Shown here piece by piece: positions 4,255-60,343 of a stretch of DNA of 64,000 nucleotides. The notes under the pieces were generated by a model that saw only the letters and a list, made by a program, of their open reading frames with translations, made no database searches and was not told the origin of the DNA. The DNA comes from Candidatus Omnitrophota bacterium (GTDB lineage: Bacteria > Omnitrophota > Gorgyraeia > Gygaellales > Profunditerraquicolaceae): the NCBI GenBank assembly GCA_963805065.1, contig CAWDSS010000010.1, positions 1,112,359-1,176,358 on the forward strand, in the 5' to 3' direction. Position 1 is the first letter of the stretch, and each line of letters opens with the position of its first letter. Both the position numbers and the translations under genes were made by a program.

Positions 4255-5500
4255 ATATCGGAAATTTAAAAGAGATGAAGATTACGGAACTTAACAAATT
4301 AGCCAAAGAGCTAAACGTTAACGGCGTAAGCGGCGTAAAAAAGCAGGATCTTATATTTAAGATACTGCAGGCTCAGGCAGAAAAGGAAGGCTTGATGTTC
4401 GGGGAAGGGGTATTGGAGATACTTCCCGAAGGGTTCGGATTCTTGAGAAGCCCGAATTACAATTATCTGCCCTGCCCGGATGATATTTATATATCTCCTT
4501 CGCAGATCAGGAAGTTTGATTTAAGGACGGGCGATACGGTAAGCGGCCAGATCCGGCCGCCTAAAGAAGGTGAAAAATATTTCGCCCTTCTTAAGGTAGA
4601 AGCGGTGAATTTTGAGAATCCCGAGGATGCTAAAGAAAAGGTGTTATTCGATAACCTGACCCCGATATATCCTCACGAAGCATTTAACATGGAAACCAAG
4701 CCCGAAGAAATATCCATGAGGGTAATGAGTTTGCTTACCCCCATCGGTAAGGGCCAGCGCGGGCTTATCGTCGCCCAGCCTTACAGCGGAAAAACCGTGC
4801 TATTGCAGAAAATCGCCAATTCCATTACCAGCAATAATCCCGATGTGGTTTTGATCGTGCTTTTGATAGACGAGCGCCCGGAAGAAGTTACCGATATGCA
4901 GAGGAACGTCAAGGGTGAAGTAATATCGTCTACTTTTGATGAGCCGCCGGAAAGGCACGTCCAGGTAGCTGAAATAGTCTTGGAAAAAGCAAAGCGACTG
5001 GTAGAGCATAAAAGGGATGTAGTGGTCCTTTTGGACAGTATCACCCGCTTAGCCCGCGCTTATAACGCCGTGGTGCCGCATAGCGGAAAGGTACTTATCA
5101 GGCGGTATTGATTCCAATGCCCTGCAAAAACCCAAAAGATTTTTTGGTGCTGCCCGCGCAGTCGATGAGGGCGGAAGCCTTACGATAATCGCTACCGCGC
5201 TGGTTGATACCGGAAGCCGTATGGATGAAGTTATTTTTGAAGAATTCAAAGGAACCGGCAACATGGAATTACAGTTGGACAGGAATCTATTCCAGAGCAG
5301 AATTTATCCGGCCATCGAGATAAAGCGTTCAAATACCAGGCATGAGGAATTGCTGCTAAAACCTGAACATACTGCAGAAGATTTGGATATTAAGGAAGGT
5401 TTTGAATGAGTTGAGCAATGTAGAGGCAATGGAGCTTTTGATTGAAAAATTATCCAAGACAAAGAATAACGAGGAATTTTTAAACAGCATGAACCAATAA
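4242..5500 (+). pseudogene. rho: Transcription termination factor Rho, reading frame broken by two single-base insertions (near 5097 and 5368)
   Basis: Frame 0 (4242-5096) gives the Rho N-terminal and RNA-binding domains through [23 protein letters not shown]. Frame 1 (5098-5367) gives [58 protein letters not shown]. Frame 2 (5369-5500) gives [43 protein letters not shown]. The joined product is colinear with E. coli Rho. Confidence 0.9.
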
Positions 5501-5545
5501 AAGTTAAAAGTTAAAAGCAAAAAGTAAAAAGTAAAACTTAAAAGG
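5499..5545 (+). repeat. A-rich heptamer array (AAAAGTT x2, AAAAGCA, AAAAGTA x2, AAACTTA) upstream of rpmE
   Basis: 7-nt periodicity read directly. Shares the string AAAAGCAAAAAGTAAAAAGT with the reverse complement of the array at 45285-45326. Confidence 0.8.
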
Positions 5546-5553
5546 AGAAGAAA

Positions 5554-5754
5554 ATGAAAGACAAAATTCATCCGAATTACAAAGACAGCACAATCGTTTG
5601 TGCATGCGGAGAAACAATCCATACCCGCTCCACAAAACCAGCTATCAGGGTAGAGATATGTTCCAAGTGCCATCCATTTTTTACCGGAAAGCAGAAATTC
5701 GTGGATTCCGCAGGCAGGGTAGATAAATTCATGAAAAAATACGGTAAGAAATGA
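5554..5754 (+). CDS. rpmE: 50S ribosomal protein L31
   Basis: MKDKIHPNY...CACG...[13 protein letters not shown] is the L31 zinc-ribbon signature. AAGGAG lies upstream. Confidence 0.95.
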
Positions 5755-7615: not shown

Positions 7616-7727
7616 TGTGTAATGTGTAATGCCAGTGTAACGCAAAAGAAAGTGTAATGTAAAAACCAATTCCATTACACAATTAAACATTACACCCACG
7701 TTACACATTACACATTAAACGTTACAC
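7596..7727. repeat. Long imperfect hairpin built from heptamer arrays: (GTGTAAT)n left arm, (ATTACAC)n right arm
   Basis: Left arm 7596-7667 and right arm 7672-7727. The innermost pair GTGTAATG (7652-7659) / CATTACAC (7673-7680) is perfect. Spans the whole prmC-murA gap. Confidence 0.85.
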
Positions 7728-7738
7728 AAATTTATAAA

Positions 7739-11353: not shown

Positions 11354-11409
11354 AAAACTCAAAAGGCAAAAGGAAAAAGTCAAAACTTCAACGTAAAACT
11401 AAAAACTTT
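11354..11409 (+). repeat. A-rich heptamer array (AAAACTC AAAAGGC AAAAGGA AAAAGTC AAAACTT ...) in the trpC-trpF gap
   Basis: Unit order matches the reverse complement of 60292-60343 (AAAACTC AAAAGGC AAAAGTC AAAACTG TAACGC ...), with one extra unit. Confidence 0.8.
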
Positions 11410-14360: not shown

Positions 14361-14388
14361 GATAATGACAAATGGCAAAATCCAAAGA

Positions 14389-14456
14389 AAAGGGGACGTT
14401 TCTATTTTTAACGTTTCCTAATTAGAAGAAAAATAGAAACGTCCCCTTTATTCTTA
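14389..14456 (+). terminator. Intrinsic terminator-like hairpin after trpA (21-bp perfect stem)
   Basis: AAAGGGGACGTTTCTATTTTT (14389-14409) pairs perfectly with AAAAATAGAAACGTCCCCTTT (14429-14449). A T-rich tail follows. Confidence 0.7.
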
Positions 14457-14465
14457 ATTTAAGAT

Positions 14466-15736: not shown

Positions 15737-16756
15737 ATGGAAAATGTACTTTCCTGGCCCATGACAATAATATTATTAATAATCTTAGCATTGGTATCGT
15801 GTTTCTTTTCATTATCGGAGACTTCCATAGTCGGTTTAAGCAGGATCCGCCTTCGCCATATGATTTCACGGGGCGTGAGAGGCGCGCAGAGCATACAGCG
15901 CCTGATTACAAAACTGGACAAGTTTATTGTTGCGATTCTGGTAGGGAATAATTTTGTCAATATTGCAATGTCCGCAATTATAACAGGAATTTTCGTTTAT
16001 CATTTCGGTTATAGATTAGGAATACTTCTTGCTACGCTTATTGCCGCGTTGTTTATAGTCATAATATGCGAGATTACCCCAAAGATTTTAGCAATTAAAA
16101 ATACGGAACGCGCGGCTCTATTGGTCGCTCCGCTGATGGAAACATTTATCAAAATATTTAATCCTGTTATCTCTGTTTTTGAAGCCGCAGGCAGCATTAT
16201 TATTAGATTATTAAGAATTAAACACGCAAAAAGATCTCCCCTGGTTACCGAAGAAGAGCTAAGACTGATGATTGAGCTCGGTAAAGAAGAAGGATTCTTG
16301 AGCATAGAAGAGGCAAAGACACTGCAGCGCATTTTTGAATTTGGAAAGATTAAAGTCAGCGACGTAATGGTACTAAAGGATAAGATGATATCCGTAGACA
16401 TCAATATCACTCCGGGACAGCTCCTGGATATTTTTGTAGAAGAGGGTCATGCGAGACTGCCGGTATATAAGGGCTCGCCCGATAACGTCGTAGGAATTAT
16501 TTATGCCAGGGACTTATTGTACATTTTAAGGGATAAAGGATTATTCTTGCTGCAGGATCTTTTGCATGAGCCTTATTTTGTCCCATCTAACATGCAAGTA
16601 AGCGAACTCTTAAAGAGATTCCAACTGGATAAAATTCAGATCGCTATCGTTATTAATGAACATAAAAAGACAGTAGGCTTGGTTACACTTGAAGACTTAA
16701 TTGAAGAGATTGTGGGCGAGATAGAAGAGACACACCACAAGCATCGGCATAGATAA
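15737..16756 (+). CDS. CNNM/DUF21 transmembrane protein with CBS pair (TlyC/CorC-like), lacking a C-terminal CorC_HlyC domain
   Basis: N-terminal multi-TM region with FSLSETS, then a CBS-like region ending LEDLIEEIVGEIE. The ORF ends at a TAA contributed by the hairpin element. Confidence 0.8.
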   Translation: MENVLSWPMTIILLIILALVSCFFSLSETSIVGLSRIRLRHMISRGVRGAQSIQRLITKLDKFIVAILVGNNFVNIAMSAIITGIFVYHFGYRLGILLATLIAALFIVIICEITPKILAIKNTERAALLVAPLMETFIKIFNPVISVFEAAGSIIIRLLRIKHAKRSPLVTEEELRLMIELGKEEGFLSIEEAKTLQRIFEFGKIKVSDVMVLKDKMISVDINITPGQLLDIFVEEGHARLPVYKGSPDNVVGIIYARDLLYILRDKGLFLLQDLLHEPYFVPSNMQVSELLKRFQLDKIQIAIVINEHKKTVGLVTLEDLIEEIVGEIEETHHKHRHR

Positions 16757-16863
16757 GTGAGGACATAAGTTATGGAGAATAAAATTAAAAATGTATCCGA
16801 CATAACTTATCTGTCCGAACTTACCCGGCACATAAATTATGTGCTGGGTTATGGGCTCATTAA
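16753..16863 (+). repeat. Intergenic modular hairpin element, copy 1 (ATAAGTGAGGACATAAGTTATGG... family)
   Basis: The first ~75 nt are near-identical to 38189- and 39271-. Hairpins are GGACATAAGTTATG/CATAACTTATCTGTCC and CCCGGCACATA/TATGTGCTGGG (16824-16848). Ends GGGCTCATTAA. Confidence 0.85.
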
Positions 16864-16947: not shown

Positions 16948-17097
16948 ATGGCTGAAAAAGGTTATTGTGTAAAATGCAAGAAAAAACAGGAAATGAAAGA
17001 TGAGCAGAAGGTCACGATGAAAAACGGGCGCCTGGCCGCAAAGGGCAAATGCCCTGCCTGCGGAACCGGCATGTATAAGATTTTAGGTAAAAAGTAG
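16948..17097 (+). CDS. Small zinc-ribbon protein (49 aa)
   Basis: MAEKGYCVKCKKKQEMKDEQKVTMKNGRLAAKGKCPACGTGMYKILGKK with CxxC...CxxC. AAGGAGG lies 7 nt upstream. Below the ORF-track length cutoff. Confidence 0.65.
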   Translation: MAEKGYCVKCKKKQEMKDEQKVTMKNGRLAAKGKCPACGTGMYKILGKK

Positions 17098-17502: not shown

Positions 17503-19140
17503 ATGAAAGAAAATATCCAGCAAACATTAACAAAAATTTTAAGAGAAGCTTTAAGCGAACTCAAATTAGATAGCGATTATTGCGGGCAATTTTACCTTGA
17601 TTTTCCTACCGATGTACGCTTCGGAGACCTCTCCACAAATCTCGCCCTCAGGTTAAGTAAAATTTTAAAAAGGCCTCCGCTGGAAATTGCAAAAGAGATA
17701 ACGCAAGTTACAAATAAGCGCCTAGATAGGGACCCTTTAAGAGCTTACGTAAAAGAAATCAAGGCAGAGGGAGCCGGTTTTATCAATTTTTATTTGCAGG
17801 AAAAATATTTCTACGAACAATTAAAAAACATAATTTTAAAAGGTAAGGCTTATTTTAAACTAAATTCTGGTAAAGGAACAAAGGTTTTGATTGAATTCGT
17901 AAGTGCAAACCCCACTGGGCCATTATCTGTTGCCCATGCACGCCAGGCTGCAGTAGGGGATGGCTTGGCAAATATACTGGAATTCTTAGGTTTTAAGGTA
18001 AAAAGGGAATATTACCTTAATGATGAAGGCAACCAGATAAATATATTAGGAAAAAGCGTAGAATTGCGCCTTAAGGAGTTAAGCGGCGAGCATTTGGAGT
18101 TTCCTGAAAATTATTATCAGGGAGATTATATTTACGATATAGCCAGGAAAGTTAAAAATGAAAATTTGAAAGTTAAAGATTTAGGAGAATTCGCAGGCAA
18201 CTATATCCTGGGTATCATTAGAAATGAGTTGGATGATTTCGGCATAGAATTCGACATCTGGTATTCTCAAAAAGCCCTGCGTAAAAGCGGGAAGATTAAT
18301 AAAGCACTTGAATTTTTGAAGAAAAAAGGATTCTTATATGACCAGGAAGGCGCTTTGTGGTTTAAATCTAGCGCATTCGGGGATGATAAGGACAGGGTTG
18401 TGATAAAAAGCGATGGTGTCTATACCTATTTAGCCCCGGATATTGCTTATCATCAGGGAAAATATAAGCGCGGATTTAAGTGGTTGATAAATCTTTGGGG
18501 CCCGGATCATCACGGCTACATCGGCCGGCTTAAGGCAGCAGTTCAGGCACTAGGGTATTCACCAGATTCTTTATCAATCGTAATCGTGCAGTTAGCTACT
18601 ATTTTTCGGGATGGTAAATCAATCGAGATGTCCACCCGCAAAGGCCAATACATAACACTGCGTGAGGTGCTACAGGAAGTTGGAAAGGATTCTTCCCGTT
18701 TTTTCTTTATGATGCGCAGGACCGACAGCCACCTGGATTTTGATCTGGATGTCGCGAAAAAACAGACTCCGGAAAACCCCGTATATTATATACAATATGC
18801 CTATGCCAGAATCTGTAGTATCCTGCGTCAAGGGCAAATTAAGTTGAGAAAAGATGCTGATCTTGCGCTCTTAAAAGAAAAAGAAGAAGTTGGCTTGATT
18901 AAAAAGCTGATACAATTTAGCCCCATATTGAATATCTGCCTGGTTACTCAGGACCCTTACATGCTCACAGTATACCTTCAGGAGTTAGCCGAGGCATTTC
19001 ATAAATTCTACGACCAGCACCGCGTTTTAGGAGACAACGATTCTTTAACAGGCGCCAGGCTCCATCTCATTGAAGCAACGAAAACCGTATTAGCTGCAGG
19101 ATTGGAGTTGCTAGGTATTTCTAAGCCAGAAAAAATGTAA
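17503..19140 (+). CDS. argS: Arginine--tRNA ligase
   Basis: SANPTGPLSVAHAR (HIGH region) and a C-terminal DALR-type anticodon-binding region. 545 aa. Confidence 0.95.
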   Translation: MKENIQQTLTKILREALSELKLDSDYCGQFYLDFPTDVRFGDLSTNLALRLSKILKRPPLEIAKEITQVTNKRLDRDPLRAYVKEIKAEGAGFINFYLQEKYFYEQLKNIILKGKAYFKLNSGKGTKVLIEFVSANPTGPLSVAHARQAAVGDGLANILEFLGFKVKREYYLNDEGNQINILGKSVELRLKELSGEHLEFPENYYQGDYIYDIARKVKNENLKVKDLGEFAGNYILGIIRNELDDFGIEFDIWYSQKALRKSGKINKALEFLKKKGFLYDQEGALWFKSSAFGDDKDRVVIKSDGVYTYLAPDIAYHQGKYKRGFKWLINLWGPDHHGYIGRLKAAVQALGYSPDSLSIVIVQLATIFRDGKSIEMSTRKGQYITLREVLQEVGKDSSRFFFMMRRTDSHLDFDLDVAKKQTPENPVYYIQYAYARICSILRQGQIKLRKDADLALLKEKEEVGLIKKLIQFSPILNICLVTQDPYMLTVYLQELAEAFHKFYDQHRVLGDNDSLTGARLHLIEATKTVLAAGLELLGISKPEKM

Positions 19141-19290
19141 GTGAGGCCATAAGTTATGGAGCGAACACCCGGCTTTATCGGAACAGCCGGTGTGCCGCTT
19201 GTGCGGCAAGCGAACATAACTTATACGGCCGAACTTATCCTTGACACGTAAGGTTCAAATTGAGATGTAATCGAATTCGTGTCAAGGATC
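19138..19290 (+). repeat. Intergenic modular hairpin element, divergent copy 2
   Basis: Starts TAAGTGAGGCCATAAGTTATGGAGCGAACA. Hairpins are GGCCATAAGTTATG/CATAACTTATACGGCC, ACACCCGGCT/AGCCGGTGT and the 12-bp ATCCTTGACACG/CGTGTCAAGGAT. Its TAA is the argS stop. Confidence 0.8.
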
Positions 19291-19302
19291 TAATTCACAT
19301 AA

Positions 19303-33951: not shown

Positions 33952-34050
33952 ACCCCGCACCTTCTAGATATTCCAGTTTTTTAATAGGCAGGTGGTGGCT
34001 TGGGGGTATAACACATTGGTCAATGATGAATAAGAGAGAAGGTGCGGGGT
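33952..34050 (+). promoter_or_regulatory. Long-range 14-bp helix bridging the rimO stop and the pgsA SD/start codon
   Basis: ACCCCGCACCTTCT (33952-33965) is the perfect complement of AGAAGGTGCGGGGT (34037-34050). The 3' arm covers the GAAGGTG SD-like sequence and the first two nt of GTG 34049. Confidence 0.6.
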
Positions 34051-36612: not shown

Positions 36613-36729
36613 ATATATTAGATATAATACTTGACATCTTCGATGTCAAGTATAAGTTCGTGCATACAATTTATGTCACTATCATTCCATAAATTGTGCA
36701 CTTGCTTATTATATTCGTTATTAATTATA

Positions 36730-36757
36730 TTGACAAGCTAAATTTTTCTGCTATAAT
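36730..36757 (+). promoter_or_regulatory. Putative sigma70-type promoter (TTGACA-16-TATAAT) of the rib operon
   Basis: TTGACA at 36730-36735 and TATAAT at 36752-36757, about 10 nt before the FMN riboswitch. Confidence 0.6.
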
Positions 36758-36767
36758 TAATTCAATT

Positions 36768-36890
36768 AATCTTCAGGGCAAGGTGAGAATCCTAACCGGC
36801 GGTTTAGCCCGCGAGCCCGATCGAAAGAAAGGGCAGATCTGGTAAAATTCCAGAGCCGATGGTGACAGTCCAGATGAAAGAAGATTAAGA
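36768..36890 (+). ncRNA. FMN riboswitch (RFN element)
   Basis: CAGGGCAAGGTGAGAATCCTAACCGGCGGT...AGCCCGCGAGCC...GATCTGGTAAAATTCCAGAGCCGATGGTGACAGTCCAGATGAAAGAAGA matches the conserved RFN core. Located upstream of ribBA. Confidence 0.93.
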
Positions 36891-36896
36891 TATCAT

Positions 36897-36927
36897 GCCC
36901 GAAGATTATCTCTTCGGGTTGTTTATT
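36897..36927 (+). terminator. Riboswitch expression-platform terminator
   Basis: CCCGAAGA-TTATC-TCTTCGGG hairpin (36898-36918) followed by TTGTTTATT. Confidence 0.8.
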
Positions 36928-36977
36928 AATGAAGACACAACTTACGGAATGAAATGACATAAATTGTGCACTTACTT

Positions 36978-38192
36978 ATGTTTAATACAATTTCAGAGAT
37001 ATTGGAAGATTTAAAAAAAGGCAGGATGGTCATTGTGGTTGATGACGAGGACCGCGAAAATGAAGGCGACCTTGTTATGGCTGCCTCTTTTACTAAGGCC
37101 GAAGACATAAATTTCATGGCGAAATTCGGCAGAGGCCTTATTTGTGTCCCCATGGAAGAAGACCGGCTTAGACTATTGGGTTTAGAGCCGATGTTAAAGG
37201 ATAATATTCATCCTGCGAATAAAGAAGATCCTTTTAAAACTGCCTGGATGATTTCAGCTGATGCTGCTAAAGGCATAACCACGGGAATTTCTGCTCATGA
37301 CCGCAGCCGCACTATAGAAGTTTTAATAAATCCGCTCTCCTTAGCCGAAGACCTGATTCGCCCCGGCCATATTTTTCCTTTAAGGGCGCGCCGCGGAGGA
37401 GTTTTGGTACGCGCAGGGCACACTGAGGCGACAATAGATTTGATGCGGCTTGCAGGGCTGTATCCCGCAGGAGTTATCTGCGAAATCATGAATGACGACG
37501 GTTCCATGGCCCGCCTACCGCAGCTTCTGGAATTTTCCCAACGCCATAATTTAAAGATTTGTTCCATTGCCAGCCTCATAGAATACCGTCGGCGCTCAGA
37601 AATTTTGATAGAACGCGTTACGCAAACACGTCTTCCCACTGAATTCGGAGAGTACAAACTCATACTTTATCGGGACCTTACCAATAACAAAATTCATACC
37701 GCGTTGATTTTGGGGGATGCGGATAATAAAGGAATGCTTGTAAGGGTGCACTCTGAATGTTTGACTGGGGATGTCTTCGGGTCTTTGCGCTGTGATTGCG
37801 GCAGGCAGCTTAAGCGCGCTATGGAAATCATTCATAAAGAAAGAAAAGGGGTAATCCTGTATATGAATCAGGAAGGAAGAGGCATTGGTTTGGTTGATAA
37901 AATACGTGCCTACAGCCTACAGGATAAGGGATTGGATACCGTAGAAGCAAATGAAATGTTGGGCCATGCTGCAGACCTTAGGGATTACGGCATAGGCGCA
38001 CAGATATTGGTGGATTTAGGTTTAAAGAATATCAGGCTCCTGACAAATAATCCGCGTAAGATTGTAGGTTTAGAGGGTTATGGGCTTAAAGTCATTGAGC
38101 GCGTTCCCTTAGAGATTGAGCCCAATCCTATAAATTATAATTACCTGAAGACAAAAAAAGAAAAATTAGGGCACGATCTGAATATTGAATAA
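36978..38192 (+). CDS. ribBA: Bifunctional 3,4-dihydroxy-2-butanone-4-phosphate synthase / GTP cyclohydrolase II
   Basis: [12 protein letters not shown] (DHBPS) and [20 protein letters not shown] (GCHII). ATG 36978 preferred over the in-frame GTG 36966. Confidence 0.95.
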
Positions 38193-38367
38193 GTGAGGAC
38201 AATAGTTTTGGAGAATAAAATTAAAAATGTATCCGACATAACTTATATGTCCGAACTTACCCCACACCCAGAAAGAGATAATTTTAAAACTATCTCTGGG
38301 TGTGGGGTTAATTCGCGCAAATAACTTACGTTGCACTTCGTGCTGCCGTAAGTTATGCGCTCATTAA
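38189..38367 (+). repeat. Intergenic modular hairpin element, copy 3 (ribBA-ribH gap)
   Basis: ATAAGTGAGGACAATAGTTTTGGAGAATAAAATTAAAAATGTATCCGACATAACTTATATGTCCGAACTTAC, then a 12-bp hairpin (38260-38271 / 38296-38307), then ATAACTTACG/CGTAAGTTAT (38321-38330 / 38347-38356), then GCGCTCATTAA. Confidence 0.9.
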
Positions 38368-38378
38368 GGAGGAGGAAA

Positions 38379-38846
38379 ATGTCAAAAGTTATTGAAGCTG
38401 ACTTTATTGCCAAAGGTAAAAAATTCGCTTTAATCGCTTCGCGTTTCAATGATTTTCTCACCAAAGAGCTGGTTTCTGGATGCATTGACACATTAATCAG
38501 GCATGGAGTAGAGGATAAAGACCTGACAGTTGCCTGGGTGCCGGGGGCATTTGAAATTCCATTGATAGCCCAGAAAATTGCCAAATCAAAAGCTTGCGAT
38601 GCAGTAATTTGTTTAGGTACCGTCATACGCGGCTCAACCCCGCATTTCGACTATATCGCTGCTGAAGTATCCAAGGGTATAGCGAAAGTGTCGCTTGATA
38701 CGGGAATTCCGGTAATTTTCGGAGTTATTACTGCGGATACAATTGAACAGGCGGTGGAGCGCGCAGGTACAAAAGACGGGAATAAAGGCCGCGATGCAGC
38801 ACTGTCTGCTATTGAAATGGCCAATTTGTTAAGTCAAATTAAGTGA
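38379..38846 (+). CDS. ribH: 6,7-dimethyl-8-ribityllumazine synthase
   Basis: [17 protein letters not shown] and HFDYIA motifs. ATG 38379 follows AGGAGGAGG. The longer ORF-track start at 38355 lies inside the repeat. Confidence 0.93.
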
Positions 38847-38860
38847 GGATATAAGTATTA
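38839..38860 (+). repeat. Stub of the hairpin-element 5' module (TTAAGTGAGGATATAAGTATTA) in the ribH-nusB gap
   Basis: Matches the first ~20 nt of the family. Its TGA (38844-38846) is the ribH stop. Confidence 0.6.
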
Positions 38861-38864
38861 AACC

Positions 38865-39278
38865 ATGCGTAAACGCACAAAAGCCAGGGAATTTGCTTTG
38901 CAGGTTCTTTATCAGATGGATATAACTCATGATGATGTCGGTGTCTCCTTAGGCAGTTTTTGGCAATCGCTGGAAGAAGATTTAGATACAGAGCTTAAGG
39001 ATTTTACTGAGGCGTTGGTTAAAGGGGTAGCCCAGAATTTAAAGACTATTGATGCAAAGATAACTCAATTTGCCGCCAACTGGAAGCTTGAACGTATGGC
39101 TGTAGTAGACAGAAATATCCTGCGCTTAGGCTGTTTTGAACTTTTGTTTAGAGAAGATATCCCGCCGAAAGTATCAATCAATGAAGGTGTTGAGCTTGCC
39201 AAGAAATATTCAGGCCCTGACGCAGGAAAATTCGTCAACGCTATCCTGGATAAGGTTAAGATAGAGAAAAATAAGTGA
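38865..39278 (+). CDS. nusB: Transcription antitermination factor NusB
   Basis: RTKAREFALQVLYQMD N-terminus and ILRLGCFELLF. ribH-nusB adjacency is classical. Confidence 0.93.
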   Translation: MRKRTKAREFALQVLYQMDITHDDVGVSLGSFWQSLEEDLDTELKDFTEALVKGVAQNLKTIDAKITQFAANWKLERMAVVDRNILRLGCFELLFREDIPPKVSINEGVELAKKYSGPDAGKFVNAILDKVKIEKNK

Positions 39279-39446
39279 GGACATAAGTTATGGAGAATAA
39301 AATTAAAAGTGTATCCGACATAACTTATATGTCCGAACTTACCCCACACCCAGCAATAATATTTGAGTTATATTTTTCTGGGTGTGGGGTTAATTCGCCC
39401 AAATAACTTACGTTCACTTTCGTTCCGTAAGTTATGGGCTCATTAA
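39271..39446 (+). repeat. Intergenic modular hairpin element, copy 4 (nusB-PHP gap)
   Basis: Same three modules as copy 3. The 12-bp hairpin is at 39342-39353 / 39378-39389 with a different loop. Ends GGGCTCATTAA, 1 nt before ATG 39448. Its TGA is the nusB stop. Confidence 0.9.
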
Positions 39447-39447
39447 A

Positions 39448-40266
39448 ATGAAATTCGCCGATTTACATTTACATACCGTATTCTCCGACGGTACCTGTAC
39501 TCCCGAGGAATTAGTTAGGCAAGGAGCAAGTTCAGGATTAAGCGCCCTGGCTATTGTTGATCACGATACTGTCGGAGCTATCGGATTGGCTAACAGGGCA
39601 GCCGAAGGCAAGAATATCGAGATTATCCCGGGAATTGAATTAAGTGCAGAATACGAAACTTTCGAGGTCCATATCTTGGGTTATTTGATTGAGTATGAAA
39701 ACAGCTGCCTGCTGGAGAAATTAAATACACTTAAGAAGAACCGGATAGAACGCGTTTACAAAATTGTGGAGAAATTAAAAGAGATGGGCGTAATTTTGAA
39801 TCCGCAGTCTATATTCGACTTGGCAAAACAGGGTACCGTAGGCAGGATGCATATTGCCAGGGCAATGGTTAATGAAGGAAAAGTAAATTCGGTTTTTGAG
39901 GCTTTTCAAAAATATATTGGGGACAAGTGCCCGGCGTATGTTTTAGGGTTTAAATTCTCTCCAGAAGAAGCGATAAAACTGATTAAAGAAACAAAGGGTA
40001 TTCCTGTTTTAGCGCATCCTTACACCGTTAGAGATGATCTGTTGGTTAAATTTATTGATTTTGGCCTTATGGGTCTTGAGGCGTATTATCCGGAACACTC
40101 GCAATCGATGACTAACTTTTATACTAATCTTGCCGCCAGACATAATTTATTGACTACCGGCGGTTCTGATTTTCACGGAGATGCAAAGCCCGAAGTCAAA
40201 ATAGGCTCAATAAAGATACCTTATACGCTAGTGGAAAGATTAAAGGAAGCCAAGAAGGAATTATGA
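39448..40266 (+). CDS. PHP-domain metal-dependent phosphoesterase (TrpH/YciV-like)
   Basis: N-terminal DLHLHTVFSDG, later DHD and HP motifs typical of PHP phosphoesterases. ATGA overlap with ribD. Confidence 0.85.
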   Translation: MKFADLHLHTVFSDGTCTPEELVRQGASSGLSALAIVDHDTVGAIGLANRAAEGKNIEIIPGIELSAEYETFEVHILGYLIEYENSCLLEKLNTLKKNRIERVYKIVEKLKEMGVILNPQSIFDLAKQGTVGRMHIARAMVNEGKVNSVFEAFQKYIGDKCPAYVLGFKFSPEEAIKLIKETKGIPVLAHPYTVRDDLLVKFIDFGLMGLEAYYPEHSQSMTNFYTNLAARHNLLTTGGSDFHGDAKPEVKIGSIKIPYTLVERLKEAKKEL

Positions 40267-42498: not shown

Positions 42499-45758
<3,260 letters not shown>

Positions 45759-51503: not shown

Positions 51504-51511
51504 CTGAAGTC

Positions 51512-51602
51512 ACAACTTATGGAGCGTAAGCGAACATAAGTTGTATTCAAAATAATTTAAGGAGGATTGACTTATGTCGTCCTTGTGGACTCCATAAGTC
51601 AA
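51512..51602 (+). repeat. Two hairpins of the CTTATG/CATAAG family in the mraZ leader
   Basis: ACAACTTATG (51512-51521) / CATAAGTTGT (51535-51544), with a GGAGCGTAAGCGAA loop related to copy 2. Also TTGACTTATG (51567-51576) / CATAAGTCAA (51593-51602). Confidence 0.75.
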
Positions 51603-51613
51603 GTGCTCAACAA

Positions 51614-52051
51614 ATGTTTTATGGCGAATATCTGCATTCAATAGACCGCAAAGGCCGCCTTATATTGCCTGCCAAATTTCGTGAAGTTGCCAAAGGCAAT
51701 TTTATAGAAAAATTTTTTGTTACCCGCGGTTTGGACAAATGTCTGTTTATGTTTGCGGAAGAGGAATGGCGCGCACAGGAAGCAAAATTTAAGTCCATAA
51801 CTTTTACCAAACAACAGGCACGCACGTTTAACCGGCTTTATTTTTCCGGAGCAGTGGAAGTACTGCCGGATAAGCAGGGTAGGATCCTACTTCCACAGTA
51901 TTTAAAGGATTTTGCCGAGATTAAAAAAGATGTGATGATTGTGGGAGTTTCAAACCGTATAGAAATCTGGGCAAAGAATAAATGGGAAGAATTTTACGGA
52001 ACCTCCCGGCAATCTTTTGAAGAGATAGCTGAAAAGTTAATGGATGTATAA
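51614..52051 (+). CDS. mraZ: Transcriptional regulator MraZ
   Basis: Duplicated SpoVT/AbrB-like halves with DRKGRLILP and DKQGRILLP. Confidence 0.95.
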   Translation: MFYGEYLHSIDRKGRLILPAKFREVAKGNFIEKFFVTRGLDKCLFMFAEEEWRAQEAKFKSITFTKQQARTFNRLYFSGAVEVLPDKQGRILLPQYLKDFAEIKKDVMIVGVSNRIEIWAKNKWEEFYGTSRQSFEEIAEKLMDV

Positions 52052-58963: not shown

Positions 58964-60253
58964 ATGATCAATAGAGAATATTTTAAAAACAAGAAAGTAC
59001 TCGTAGTGGGTTTTGCGCGTTCGGGGCTTGCAAGTTCCAATTTGCTTTATGATTTGGGAGCCGACGTACGCATTACCGACAATAAAGACTACGATTCCAC
59101 ACGCAATAACCTTAGGAAACTGAAATCAAGGAAGATAAAAGTTGAATTAGGAAAACACTCTCCGGAATTCGTCAAAGGCAATGATTATTTAATTATTTCT
59201 CCGGGTGTCACAGATACAGCCTTGCCAATTGCCTGGGCCAGGCAATTTAACATACCAATCATGAGTGAGATAGAGTTTGCCTGGATACTTTGCCCGGCAG
59301 GCATAATTGCAGTTACAGGCTCAAGCGGTAAAACTACTGTGACAACTTTAATTGGACAAATCCTGGAAGCCTCTGGCAAAAGAGCCTTTGTTTGCGGAAA
59401 CATAGGAAATCCCTTTAGCGGGGAAGTAGATAAGATGAGTGCCAAAGATTTTGTTTCTTTGGAGGTGAGTTCTTTTCAGTTACAACACATAGTAAATTTT
59501 AGGCCTAAGATTTCCGTGATATTAAACTTCAGCAAGAACCATTTAGACAGGCATAAGGATATGCTAGAATACTTAGATGCCAAAAAACGCATATTCCTGA
59601 ATCAAACTAAAGATGATTTCCTGGTGTTAAATGAGAATGACGCGGTATTAAAAAATCTGGCGGAAGAGACTAGCGCAAAAGTAGTATACTTTTCGCAATC
59701 CCTCCAATTCAATCCTAATCAGGCAGCGGCTGTAGCCGCTTGTTCGATACTGGGAATCTCTAAGGATATATGTATAAAGGTATTTTCTGAATTTAAAGGC
59801 CTCCAGCATCGTTTGGAATATGTTACGCAAATTAACAACATAAAATTTATAAACGATTCCAAGGCGACGCTTGTAGAATCTACTATCTGGGCAATAAATA
59901 ATTTGGCTACGCCGGTAATACTGATTGCCGGCGGCAAAGACAAGGGAGTGGATTATAAAGGCGTAATTGAAGTGGCCAGCAAGAAAGTAAGAGAAGTAAT
60001 TTTAATCGGGGAAGCAAAAGAGAAAATCAGAAATGCTTTTAAGGGACACTTAGCAACCGATGAAGCAGCTACTCTTGAAGAGGCGGTAAACAAAGCGTTC
60101 CGCAAGGCTAAGCCCGGGGATTCTGTATTACTCTCTCCTATGTGCTCTAGTTTTGATATGTTTTCCAGTTATGAGGAAAGAGGCAATTGCTTCAAAAAAG
60201 CAGTTTATGATTTAATGAAACAGAATGACACTTGTGATAAAGTCAAAACGTAA
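58964..60253 (+). CDS. murD: UDP-N-acetylmuramoylalanine--D-glutamate ligase
   Basis: N-terminal Rossmann VVGFARSG and P-loop VTGSSGKTTV. The last codons run into the heptamer array. Confidence 0.93.
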   Translation: MINREYFKNKKVLVVGFARSGLASSNLLYDLGADVRITDNKDYDSTRNNLRKLKSRKIKVELGKHSPEFVKGNDYLIISPGVTDTALPIAWARQFNIPIMSEIEFAWILCPAGIIAVTGSSGKTTVTTLIGQILEASGKRAFVCGNIGNPFSGEVDKMSAKDFVSLEVSSFQLQHIVNFRPKISVILNFSKNHLDRHKDMLEYLDAKKRIFLNQTKDDFLVLNENDAVLKNLAEETSAKVVYFSQSLQFNPNQAAAVAACSILGISKDICIKVFSEFKGLQHRLEYVTQINNIKFINDSKATLVESTIWAINNLATPVILIAGGKDKGVDYKGVIEVASKKVREVILIGEAKEKIRNAFKGHLATDEAATLEEAVNKAFRKAKPGDSVLLSPMCSSFDMFSSYEERGNCFKKAVYDLMKQNDTCDKVKT

Positions 60254-60343
60254 AAGTCAAAACGCAAAACTTAAACGCAAAACTTAAAACGTTTTAAATT
60301 TTGCGTTACAGTTTTGACTTTTGCCTTTTGAGTTTTGAGTTTA
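60238..60343. repeat. Heptamer-array hairpin (AAAAGTC/AAAACGC/AAAACTT arm; TTTTGCG/TTTTGAC/TTTTGAG arm) in the murD-ftsW gap
   Basis: Left arm 60238-60291, right arm 60292-60343, turn at AAAACG|TTTT. The right arm is the reverse complement of the array at 11354-11409. Confidence 0.85.

Follow-up and report, generated by a model that had tools for sequence, protein, structure and literature searches.

Three-hairpin palindromic repeats, probably mobile, at stop/start junctions of Omnitrophota operons

What fills the gaps of a riboflavin operon in a genome so compact that genes on the same strand mostly overlap or lie 1-3 nt apart? The question arises from a 64,000-nucleotide (nt) stretch, hereafter the window, of a Candidatus Omnitrophota bacterium (GenBank assembly GCA_963805065.1, contig CAWDSS010000010.1, positions 1,112,359 to 1,176,358), in which an earlier note had described two full copies and a stub of one hairpin element in all three gaps of the ribBA-ribH-nusB-PHP stretch. 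Reading the sequence confirms these three occurrences, and Pfam bears out the identities of the genes around them, namely ribBA, ribH, nusB, a PHP-domain gene and ribD. We think it probable that the elements belong to an Omnitrophota-wide family of mobile palindromic repeats, which insert at TAA-bearing stop/start junctions and are tolerated there because each supplies stop codons of its own and does not disturb the start that follows. The occurrences in the riboflavin operon are as follows.

38189-38367, + strand: full element, copy 1, in the ribBA/ribH gap; modules H1 38190-38259, H2 38260-38307 and H3 38308-38367, all on +
38840-38860, + strand: stub TAAGTGAGGATATAAGTATTA, in the ribH/nusB gap
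39271-39446, + strand: full element, copy 2, in the nusB/PHP gap; modules H1 39272-39341, H2 39342-39389 and H3 39390-39446, all on +

Both full copies contain the three modules first described, and they are identical at 149 of 179 aligned columns, with the 5' arm of copy 1 being degenerate (GGACAATAGTTTTG, three mismatches against the consensus). The 12-bp GC-rich H2 stems, CCCCACACCCAG/CTGGGTGTGGGG, are the same in the two copies, and the loops that they enclose are unrelated. As had been claimed, the element supplies the stop codons of the genes before it: ribBA ends at TAA 38190-38192, the TAA of the conserved head TAAGTGAGG, and ribH and nusB end at a TGA four bases further into this motif (38844-38846 in the stub and 39276-39278 in copy 2). 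The 3' ends adjoin the next translation signals, again as described, with copy 1 closing on the tail CTCATTAA, followed by GGAGGAGGAAAATG of ribH, and abutting AAGGAGGAGGAAAATG, and copy 2 abutting AAAATG, where the PHP start codon (ATG at 39448) lies one A after the tail and lacks a Shine-Dalgarno (SD) sequence. The stub matches the start of the 5' arm at 16 of 17 positions and is placed by a 5' arm search with four mismatches. A similar sequence, TTAAGTAAGGGTAAATAAACC, is its counterpart in a relative (locus L116; other loci are numbered likewise), and the ribH/nusB gap of L064 holds a full element; the stub is probably a deletion remnant that retains both element termini. These motifs recur in the window far above expectation, with six occurrences of TAAGTGAGG against 0.36 expected, four of CCCCACACCCAG against 0.07, and four exact matches to the 23-nt 3' arm of H1, plus one with three mismatches, against 0.02.

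The full element, of about 180 nt, consists of three abutting hairpins with zero-length linkers. Its basic hairpin unit of 55-100 nt is closed by an outer A/T helix of 5 bp (TAAGT/ACTTA). Inward from there come a tandem G.A/A.G internal loop, a G/C helix of 4 bp (GGNC/GNCC), a bulge of 2 nt, a helix of 10 bp (ATAAGTTATG/CATAACTTAT) and a tip that varies. H1 accordingly reads TAAGT / GA / GGNC / ATAAGTTATG / variable tip / CATAACTTAT / NN bulge / GNCC / GA / ACTTA, and H3 reads TTAAT / TC / GCNCA / ATAACTTACG / tip / CGTAAGTTAT / GNGC / TC / ATTAA. To relate the two, a covariance model was built from H1 and run on both strands of the window and loci. H1 itself scores 71.9 bits in copy 1 and 88.5 bits in copy 2 on the + strand, and the H3 units of these copies score 48.7 and 50.5 bits on the - strand. 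In both full window copies, H3 is recognised by the H1 model on the opposite strand at 48-55 bits (E ~1e-8) versus just 12-17 bits on the same strand, and most other loci show this pattern too; the full element is therefore made of two inverted units around a variable H2. By this homology, H3 is an inverted, diverged homologue of H1. Terminal inverted repeats are present (TAAGTGAGGNCATAAGTTATG versus the reverse complement of the 3' end, TTAATGAGCNCATAACTTACG), and the tandem G.A pairs and GAA/GNRA tips lie on the top strand in H1 and on the bottom strand in H3. This mirror symmetry points to symmetry at the level of DNA.

The structure proposed in the earlier note folds far better than shuffled sequence (z -8.5 for copy 1 and -8.2 for copy 2; none of 200 shuffles was equally good), and helix covariation is found in both H1 and H3. 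The lone H1 arm position left unconstrained by the search pattern covaries (AU 82, CG 14, GC 9, GU 2, other 4). H3, which lies outside that pattern and is thus unconstrained by the search, has compensatory changes in 10 of its 17 pairs and a covarying indel, TTAAAT/ATTTAA versus TTAAT/ATTAA, from which it follows that the terminal TAA is part of the H3 helix. A cloverleaf with a closing stem that joins the 5' and 3' ends was considered and is contradicted, as the tail pairs inside H3. Hairpin formation, whether in DNA or in RNA, is strongly supported as a prediction from these alignments. H2 spans exactly from the end of H1 to the start of H3, and a perfect stem of at least 8 bp is present at the exact position in 56% of copies versus 1% of control positions. 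With 87 distinct arm sequences, H2 is a fast-evolving GC-rich hairpin. Its identity is 0.589 within genomes versus 0.460 between them (0 of 300 permutations as high), and this clustering of H2 types by genome argues for amplification or homogenisation within genomes.

The folded form of H1 raises the question of whether the element is a single-stranded DNA (ssDNA) recombination site, either of the integron attC type or resembling the ends of IS200/IS605-type insertion sequences, with H1 as the folded substrate. Its outer 5-bp box, the 2x2 internal loop as unpaired spacer, the extrahelical bases of the 2-nt bulge and the variable terminal structure are all like those of a folded attC. Sites of integron cassettes typically lie immediately 3' of open reading frames (ORFs), which is also where the Omnitrophota element is found. 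Unlike attC sites, however, neither H1 nor H3 contains the core RYYYAAC...GTTRRRY, no cassette array or integrase accompanies the copies, and the flanks are housekeeping operons (rib, S10, str and groESL). The known ends of IS200/IS605-type elements hold both hairpins on the same strand, whereas here they are mirrored. We disfavor this explanation and regard it as very improbable.

How widespread is the family? An exact-match scan with the 23-nt arm motif CATAACTTATNNGNCCGAACTTA, taking one genome per species, returned at least 114 loci in at least 52 assemblies (at least 53 with the window), well beyond the two copies and stub from which the family was proposed. Among the matches listed, to which the statistics on junctions, orientation and covariation also refer, each within an 8-kb slice around the element, nearly all are from Candidatus Omnitrophota, and a few are labelled as Planctomycetes-type metagenome-assembled genomes (MAGs). 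The same motif has no match in the viral contigs scanned. The earlier note had not recognised the family, and indeed no curated RNA family covers it: in the window, Rfam reports only a flavin mononucleotide (FMN) riboswitch and tRNA at the gathering threshold, and at E<=10 the element finds only generic microRNA-precursor hairpins, far under threshold. [quoted passage not shown]

Whether these copies are insertions can be asked of the same junctions in close relatives, which were found through RibH homologues (81-87% identity) and traced to contigs. The nusB/PHP junction is an empty 4-nt ATGA overlap in five of eight relatives (L116, L118, L119, L121 and L122). In L119 it reads GAAAAAAATAAATGAAATTC, which is nearly the window sequence minus the element, as predicted for the state before insertion, with a one-base ambiguity over whether TAA or AA is duplicated. 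The ribBA/ribH gap is 14-23 nt and empty in six of the eight, and it holds an element with H1 deleted and a different H2 in L116 and a degenerate version in L117. Remnants are present in nusB/PHP of L117 (TAAGTGACCCATT) and in ribH/nusB of L121 (GGTTAATTCGCACAACAAATTAA). Beyond the riboflavin operon, an all-against-all comparison of the proteins flanking the 114 listed loci gave 187 pairwise comparisons in which the length of an orthologous junction differs by at least 60 nt. The S10/L3 and rpsG/fusA junctions have no element in L033, where they read TAGCTAAAATG and TAAGATG, and contain one in three to four other species; more than 20 further junctions likewise vary between filled and empty across species. 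Empty orthologous sites in close relatives indicate that the elements are insertions, and the filled and empty junctions bear out the insertion-site selectivity suggested before. As judged from aligned junctions, copies are shown to have been gained at or right after TAA in the very short stop/start junctions of packed operons, and by the same comparisons the elements also decay to stubs.

The position of copies relative to stop and start codons is likewise far from random. When same-strand upstream ORFs of at least 60 codons are scored, the first TAA of the element closes the ORF in frame in 69 of 111 scored copies; the other two frames account for nine copies each, and the remaining 24 have no long ORF that ends at the 5' TAA. 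A copy starts inside the stop codon of such an ORF in 80 of 114 cases (~70%), and just 1 of 121 copies lies within a long ORF. At the other end, in about 85% of tailed copies, the terminal CTCATT(A/T)AA runs directly into an SD or into an ATG that lacks one. The ATG of the next gene is at most 5 nt from the tail, with no SD, in 43 of 87 tailed copies, AAGGAGG followed by an ATG 11-18 nt on is present in about 30, and 11 have no long ORF within 120 nt, some of these preceding short genes. Behind an element, groEL and tuf always have an SD, and rplC and fusA have none.

At two loci, modules provide part of the coding sequence itself. At L050:135-219, an H3 variant with AAAGGAG and ATG gives guaA its SD, its start and about 14 N-terminal residues, and at L120:3465-3510, a solo GC hairpin occupies the former nusB/PHP ATGA overlap, with the PHP start moved into the hairpin.

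Given this tight fit, could the element encode something itself? H1 contains GAGGA-N9-ATG (MENKIKNVSDITYMSELTPHP...): in most copies a conserved ATG follows an SD-like GAGG at a distance of 9 nt, and this ATG might start a small protein or a relay ORF that takes ribosomes over the element to the following start. The frame is not conserved, however: short-tip and long-tip versions shift it, and its stop falls at any point from 228 nt short of the element's end to 52 nt beyond it, for an ORF length of 3 to 76 codons. The conserved positions are, moreover, the paired ones. With stops so scattered, we reject the H1 ORF, which we find scarcely credible.

The best reading of the family is one of non-autonomous, mobile repeats, specific to Omnitrophota, of the kind that comprises REP sequences, bacterial interspersed mosaic elements (BIMEs), REP doublets forming hairpins (REPINs) and MITEs. 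Copies would persist because they are nearly harmless, since the 5' TAAGTGA has stops in two frames and the 3' end passes to an existing SD or ATG. A mobilising enzyme acting in trans may read the near-invariant arms, possibly as hairpins in ssDNA, and the mirror symmetry of H1 and H3 is what would be predicted for one DNA- or hairpin-binding enzyme that reads both ends. An element inside an operon would be co-transcribed, which would place stable hairpins 3' of the upstream cistron and against the downstream start, with possible knock-on effects on mRNA stability, processing and translational coupling.

Several observations weigh against mobility as the whole explanation. In at least 53 species the arms scarcely vary, and their conservation is above that of neighboring coding DNA; H3 units of 60 nt recur unchanged from one species to another at different loci (38308-38367 of the window and L061:2529-2588). 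Conservation of this order is above what is usual for decaying selfish DNA and would also fit a host function. Some junctions are occupied in several species (groES/groEL in four, S10/L3 in four and upstream of tuf in three), and the essential rplC and fusA stay SD-less behind an inserted element, which suggests that the element is compatible with, or contributes to, downstream translation. Of the elements between co-directional genes, 62 are sense and 3 antisense (~95% sense). No target-site duplication is unambiguous: the TAA found at each end of the element is base-paired inside H1 and H3, and filled and empty sites fit a duplication of TAA or AA only with a 1-2 nt discrepancy. No transposase gene, nor one like that of a REP-associated tyrosine transposase (RAYT), turned up, although there was no systematic search for one. 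Likewise, no copy was seen to enclose an ORF among the 114 listed loci, in the absence of a genome-wide search.

Two loci are of interest beside these points. The groundwater MAG locus L029:1799-6185 reads rpsG, element, fusA, element, tuf - S10, element, rplC, with three elements in 4.4 kb of the most highly expressed operons. An ORF of 423 aa at L054:927-2196 (minus strand when the element is read as plus) is found 149 nt downstream of an element, in antisense orientation; its C terminus (…LTARKLVRLIWTLLTRGVLY…) looks IS110-type-transposase-like by eye, with no link to the repeat family shown.

The sense bias is difficult to interpret. Among distant ORFs in the loci, 79% are co-oriented with the element, as are 60 of 68 window genes (88%). 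With ORFs of 70 aa or more counted, the + strand of the window has 60 of the 68, and GC skew on this strand is uniformly positive (+0.07 to +0.13) at a GC content of 41%. Since gene-strand bias and GC skew coincide, sense orientation cannot be assigned to transcription, and an attempt to separate transcription from replication as its cause failed because the two run together. The rare true antisense copies, in L032 and L007, are antisense both to the genes and to GC skew.

An RNA-level role of the element is plausible, to judge from its placement and predicted fold. One such explanation holds that an element of mobile origin has been domesticated as an intercistronic RNA, kept for a job in polycistronic mRNA, which would not be exclusive of the mobile reading. 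Candidate jobs are a barrier to 3' exonucleases, a processing site of the RNase III type through which the stability of mRNA segments is set, or a compact fold that holds the stop near an SD-less start, such that termination-reinitiation coupling survives an insert of 180 nt. The 62 of 65 co-directional gene pairs with a sense element fit this, as do the zero-length linkers, the conservation of the arms above flanking coding DNA and the geometry of about half of tailed copies, in which the stop is at the first base of H1 and the start 0-3 nt past the last pair of H3. Genes behind the element are SD-less at rplC (three species), fusA (two) and PHP (the window), and uncoupled genes of the same genomes carry a strong AAGGAGG. 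The helices, more than 20 bp long and interrupted by small internal loops, also resemble substrates of RNase III.

Other results speak against an RNA role. There is no sense-strand excess of G.U among helix mismatches, the counts being small and contradictory (G.T 14 versus A.C 30 among one-by-one mismatches on the sense strand; GU 12 versus AC 6 in the H3 alignment). For copy 2, the antisense strand folds better than the sense strand, at -71.0 versus -67.2 kcal/mol (antisense z -10.8), and sense H3 has U.C/C.U mismatches and a UUC triloop, with the stable G.A/GAA forms on the other strand. Most relatives lack elements at equivalent junctions, and the sense bias is confounded by the gene-strand bias of 79-88% and by GC skew. 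Domestication as RNA seems to us possible, if doubtful. Of the earlier suggestion of REP/BIME-type RNA elements that modulate mRNA stability, the kind stands, in that the elements are interspersed, modular and palindromic, whereas the stability role gains nothing from the G.U counts or from the better antisense fold.

A narrower proposal is that the triple hairpin is "translationally transparent," bringing the stop and the SD-less start so close that re-initiation, in a manner like shunting, preserves coupling over 180 nt; in a variant, cleavage of the RNA at the 3' base would leave cistrons that are nearly leaderless. Taken together, these two appear unlikely. Either, if true, would explain how coupled junctions of the ATGA/TAAATG type before the essential rplC and fusA could be colonised in many species without gaining an SD.

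The count of copies in the window given by the earlier note was too low. There are four copies bearing H1, plus partial or variant modules, and of the eight same-strand gaps that measure 100 nt or more, four contain an H1-bearing element. The occurrences outside the three gaps above are the following.

16754-16863, + strand: copy without an H3 hairpin, after a CNNM/CBS gene (Pfam; 89 bits); H1 16754-16823, H2 CCCGGCACAT..ATGTGCTGGG with one G.T at 16824-16848, tail TTATGGGCTCATTAA at 16849-16863
19138-19299, + strand: copy in the argS/recJ gap (genes named by Pfam; 64.1 bits); H1 19138-19237 with a compensated GGCC/GGCC pair and a branched GC-rich tip, H2 19238-19288 as TCCTTGACACG...CGTGTCAAGGA, then degenerate TCTAATTCACA
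33952-34048, + strand: solo H2-type hairpin CCCCGCACCTTCT...AGAAGGTGCGGGG, occupying the gap of two same-strand genes
36629-36708, + strand: partial element upstream of the FMN-riboswitch promoter; H2-type hairpin ACTTGACATCTTCGATGTCAAGT at 36629-36651, H3-type unit at 36653-36708
36926-36980, + strand: collapsed variant, TGAAGACACAACTTACGGAATGAAATGA joined to CATAAATTGTGCACTTACTTATG (weak, 13.7 bits)
51505-51613, + strand: variant pair (weak; 19.3 bits on - and 18 bits on +); H1-inner-like hairpin ACAACTTATGGAGCGTAAGCGAACATAAGTTGT, an SD, and an H3-type hairpin with a 7-codon mini-ORF

Here too, stops coincide with the 5' end, at TAA 16754-16756 for the CNNM/CBS gene and TAA 19138-19140 for argS. 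The stem type of the solo hairpin at 33952-34048 is that of H2 in L019, L031, L038 and L089. The H1 model finds the partial element at 36629-36708 on the - strand with 55.4 bits (E 1.2e-9). In the collapsed variant at 36926-36980, the final three bases are the ATG of ribBA, and both halves border a 122-nt insert in L074 (ribD/ribE). The variant pair at 51505-51613 stops right ahead of an ATG at 51614. H1 also varies at other loci. In L010, L012, L022, L038, L079, L081 and L106, a perfect palindrome of 20 nt, CCTGCCTGCCGGCAGGCAGG, separates ATG from GAG in the H1 tip and resembles a hairpin nested in a hairpin. In L070, another insert, of 40 nt, lies in the H1 5' arm with TAAG...TAAG at its flanks.

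Several other features share the window with the family. Upstream of ribBA, the FMN riboswitch (Rfam RF00050, 115 bits) spans 36765-36889, with a promoter-like TTGACA-17-TATAAT site ahead of it (~36729-36757) and a terminator-like hairpin downstream (~36898-36927). The 429-nt gap downstream of the element at 16754-16863 contains a 49-aa zinc-ribbon-like ORF (16948-17097; Pfam DUF5679, E 5e-18) with its own AAGGAGG. A long palindrome of GTGTAATGT-type units (GTAATGTGTAATGTGTAATG ... CATTACACATTACACATTA), unrelated in sequence to the H1/H3 family, fills a same-strand gap at 7616-7738. A putative intrinsic terminator separates two same-strand genes at 14361-14465, where a 20-bp hairpin containing one mismatch (AAAGGGGACGTTTCTATTTTT ... 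AAAATAGAAACGTCCCCTTT) precedes a T-rich run. A-rich periodic repeats, AAAAG(N)AAAAC, occur at 5500-5559, 11362-11408, 45226-45272 and 60246-60334, those at 60250-60340 forming a long hairpin.

Omnitrophota are an uncultured phylum of mostly ultra-small, genome-compact bacteria, known almost only from metagenome bins. At about one per 10-15 kb, an element that supplies stops, starts and even N-terminal residues (guaA in L050 and PHP in L120) affects assembly breaks, gene calling and operon prediction and needs annotation. The family points to mobile DNA thriving in very compact genomes by way of the sole free space, the stop/start junctions. It also offers a natural experiment, with many independent structured inserts of 180 nt between a stop and the SD-less start of an essential gene, and its near-invariant 23-mer is a possible clade marker.

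Among known systems, the intercistronic RNase III hairpins of phage T7 early mRNA, which are long and imperfect and have a small internal loop, offer a likeness only in how they work. In both cases, a long imperfect hairpin stands between cistrons, known here from sequence, but the T7 hairpins are single copy, phage encoded and not mobile. Closer are the co-transcribed MITEs of bacteria, such as Correia/NEMIS of Neisseria, ERIC/IRU of Enterobacteria and Yersinia, BOX and RUP of pneumococcus and RPE of Rickettsia. These are 100-200 bp long and modular (as in BOX A-B-C), with inverted termini and A/T-rich insertion sites, and they lie in operon gaps, where they are co-transcribed as long hairpins open to processing by RNase III or RNase E. 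The Omnitrophota element is like them in size, modularity and predicted co-transcription. It differs in that each terminus is a complete hairpin, giving three hairpins in tandem instead of one long one, in the lack of a clear target-site duplication and of any parent insertion sequence with matching ends among what was seen (no genome-wide search was made), and in a stop/start fit far tighter than that reported for Correia, ERIC, BOX, RUP and RPE.

The nearest comparison is with REP sequences, BIMEs and REPINs, known from Enterobacteria, Pseudomonas and other bacteria. Such repeats are extragenic and lie mostly downstream of ORFs, where the neighboring genes are co-directional or convergent, and their genomes carry a single-copy RAYT (Y1/HUH) gene with repeats on its flanks. 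REP units are short imperfect palindromes of 20-40 bp with an unpaired GTAG or CGTC tag at one end, and GTAG termini can supply the stop codon of a flanking ORF (PMC3733652); they occur as inverted doublets with a spacer between (PMC3116915). Unlike these, the Omnitrophota unit is 55-100 nt long and has neither GTAG nor CGTC at either end, bearing instead the conserved head TAAGTGAGG, and its middle module is itself a variable GC hairpin. The near-invariance of its arms across at least 53 species, in a phylum for which the literature describes no REP family, sets it further apart, as does the lack so far of a linked RAYT gene in the 8-kb slices and the 64-kb window, where no systematic scan was made. 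In most other respects the two agree. Both are interspersed extragenic palindromes, found mostly just downstream of ORFs and between co-directional genes, both pair inverted units around a spacer module and can fold into larger structures, and both have many copies per genome and long persistence as families. As with GTAG REPs, the terminus of the element gives the stop codon of the flanking ORF (PMC3733652). The Omnitrophota repeats are a previously undescribed family and a relative of REP/BIME/MITE-type repeats, rather than a novel kind of regulator.

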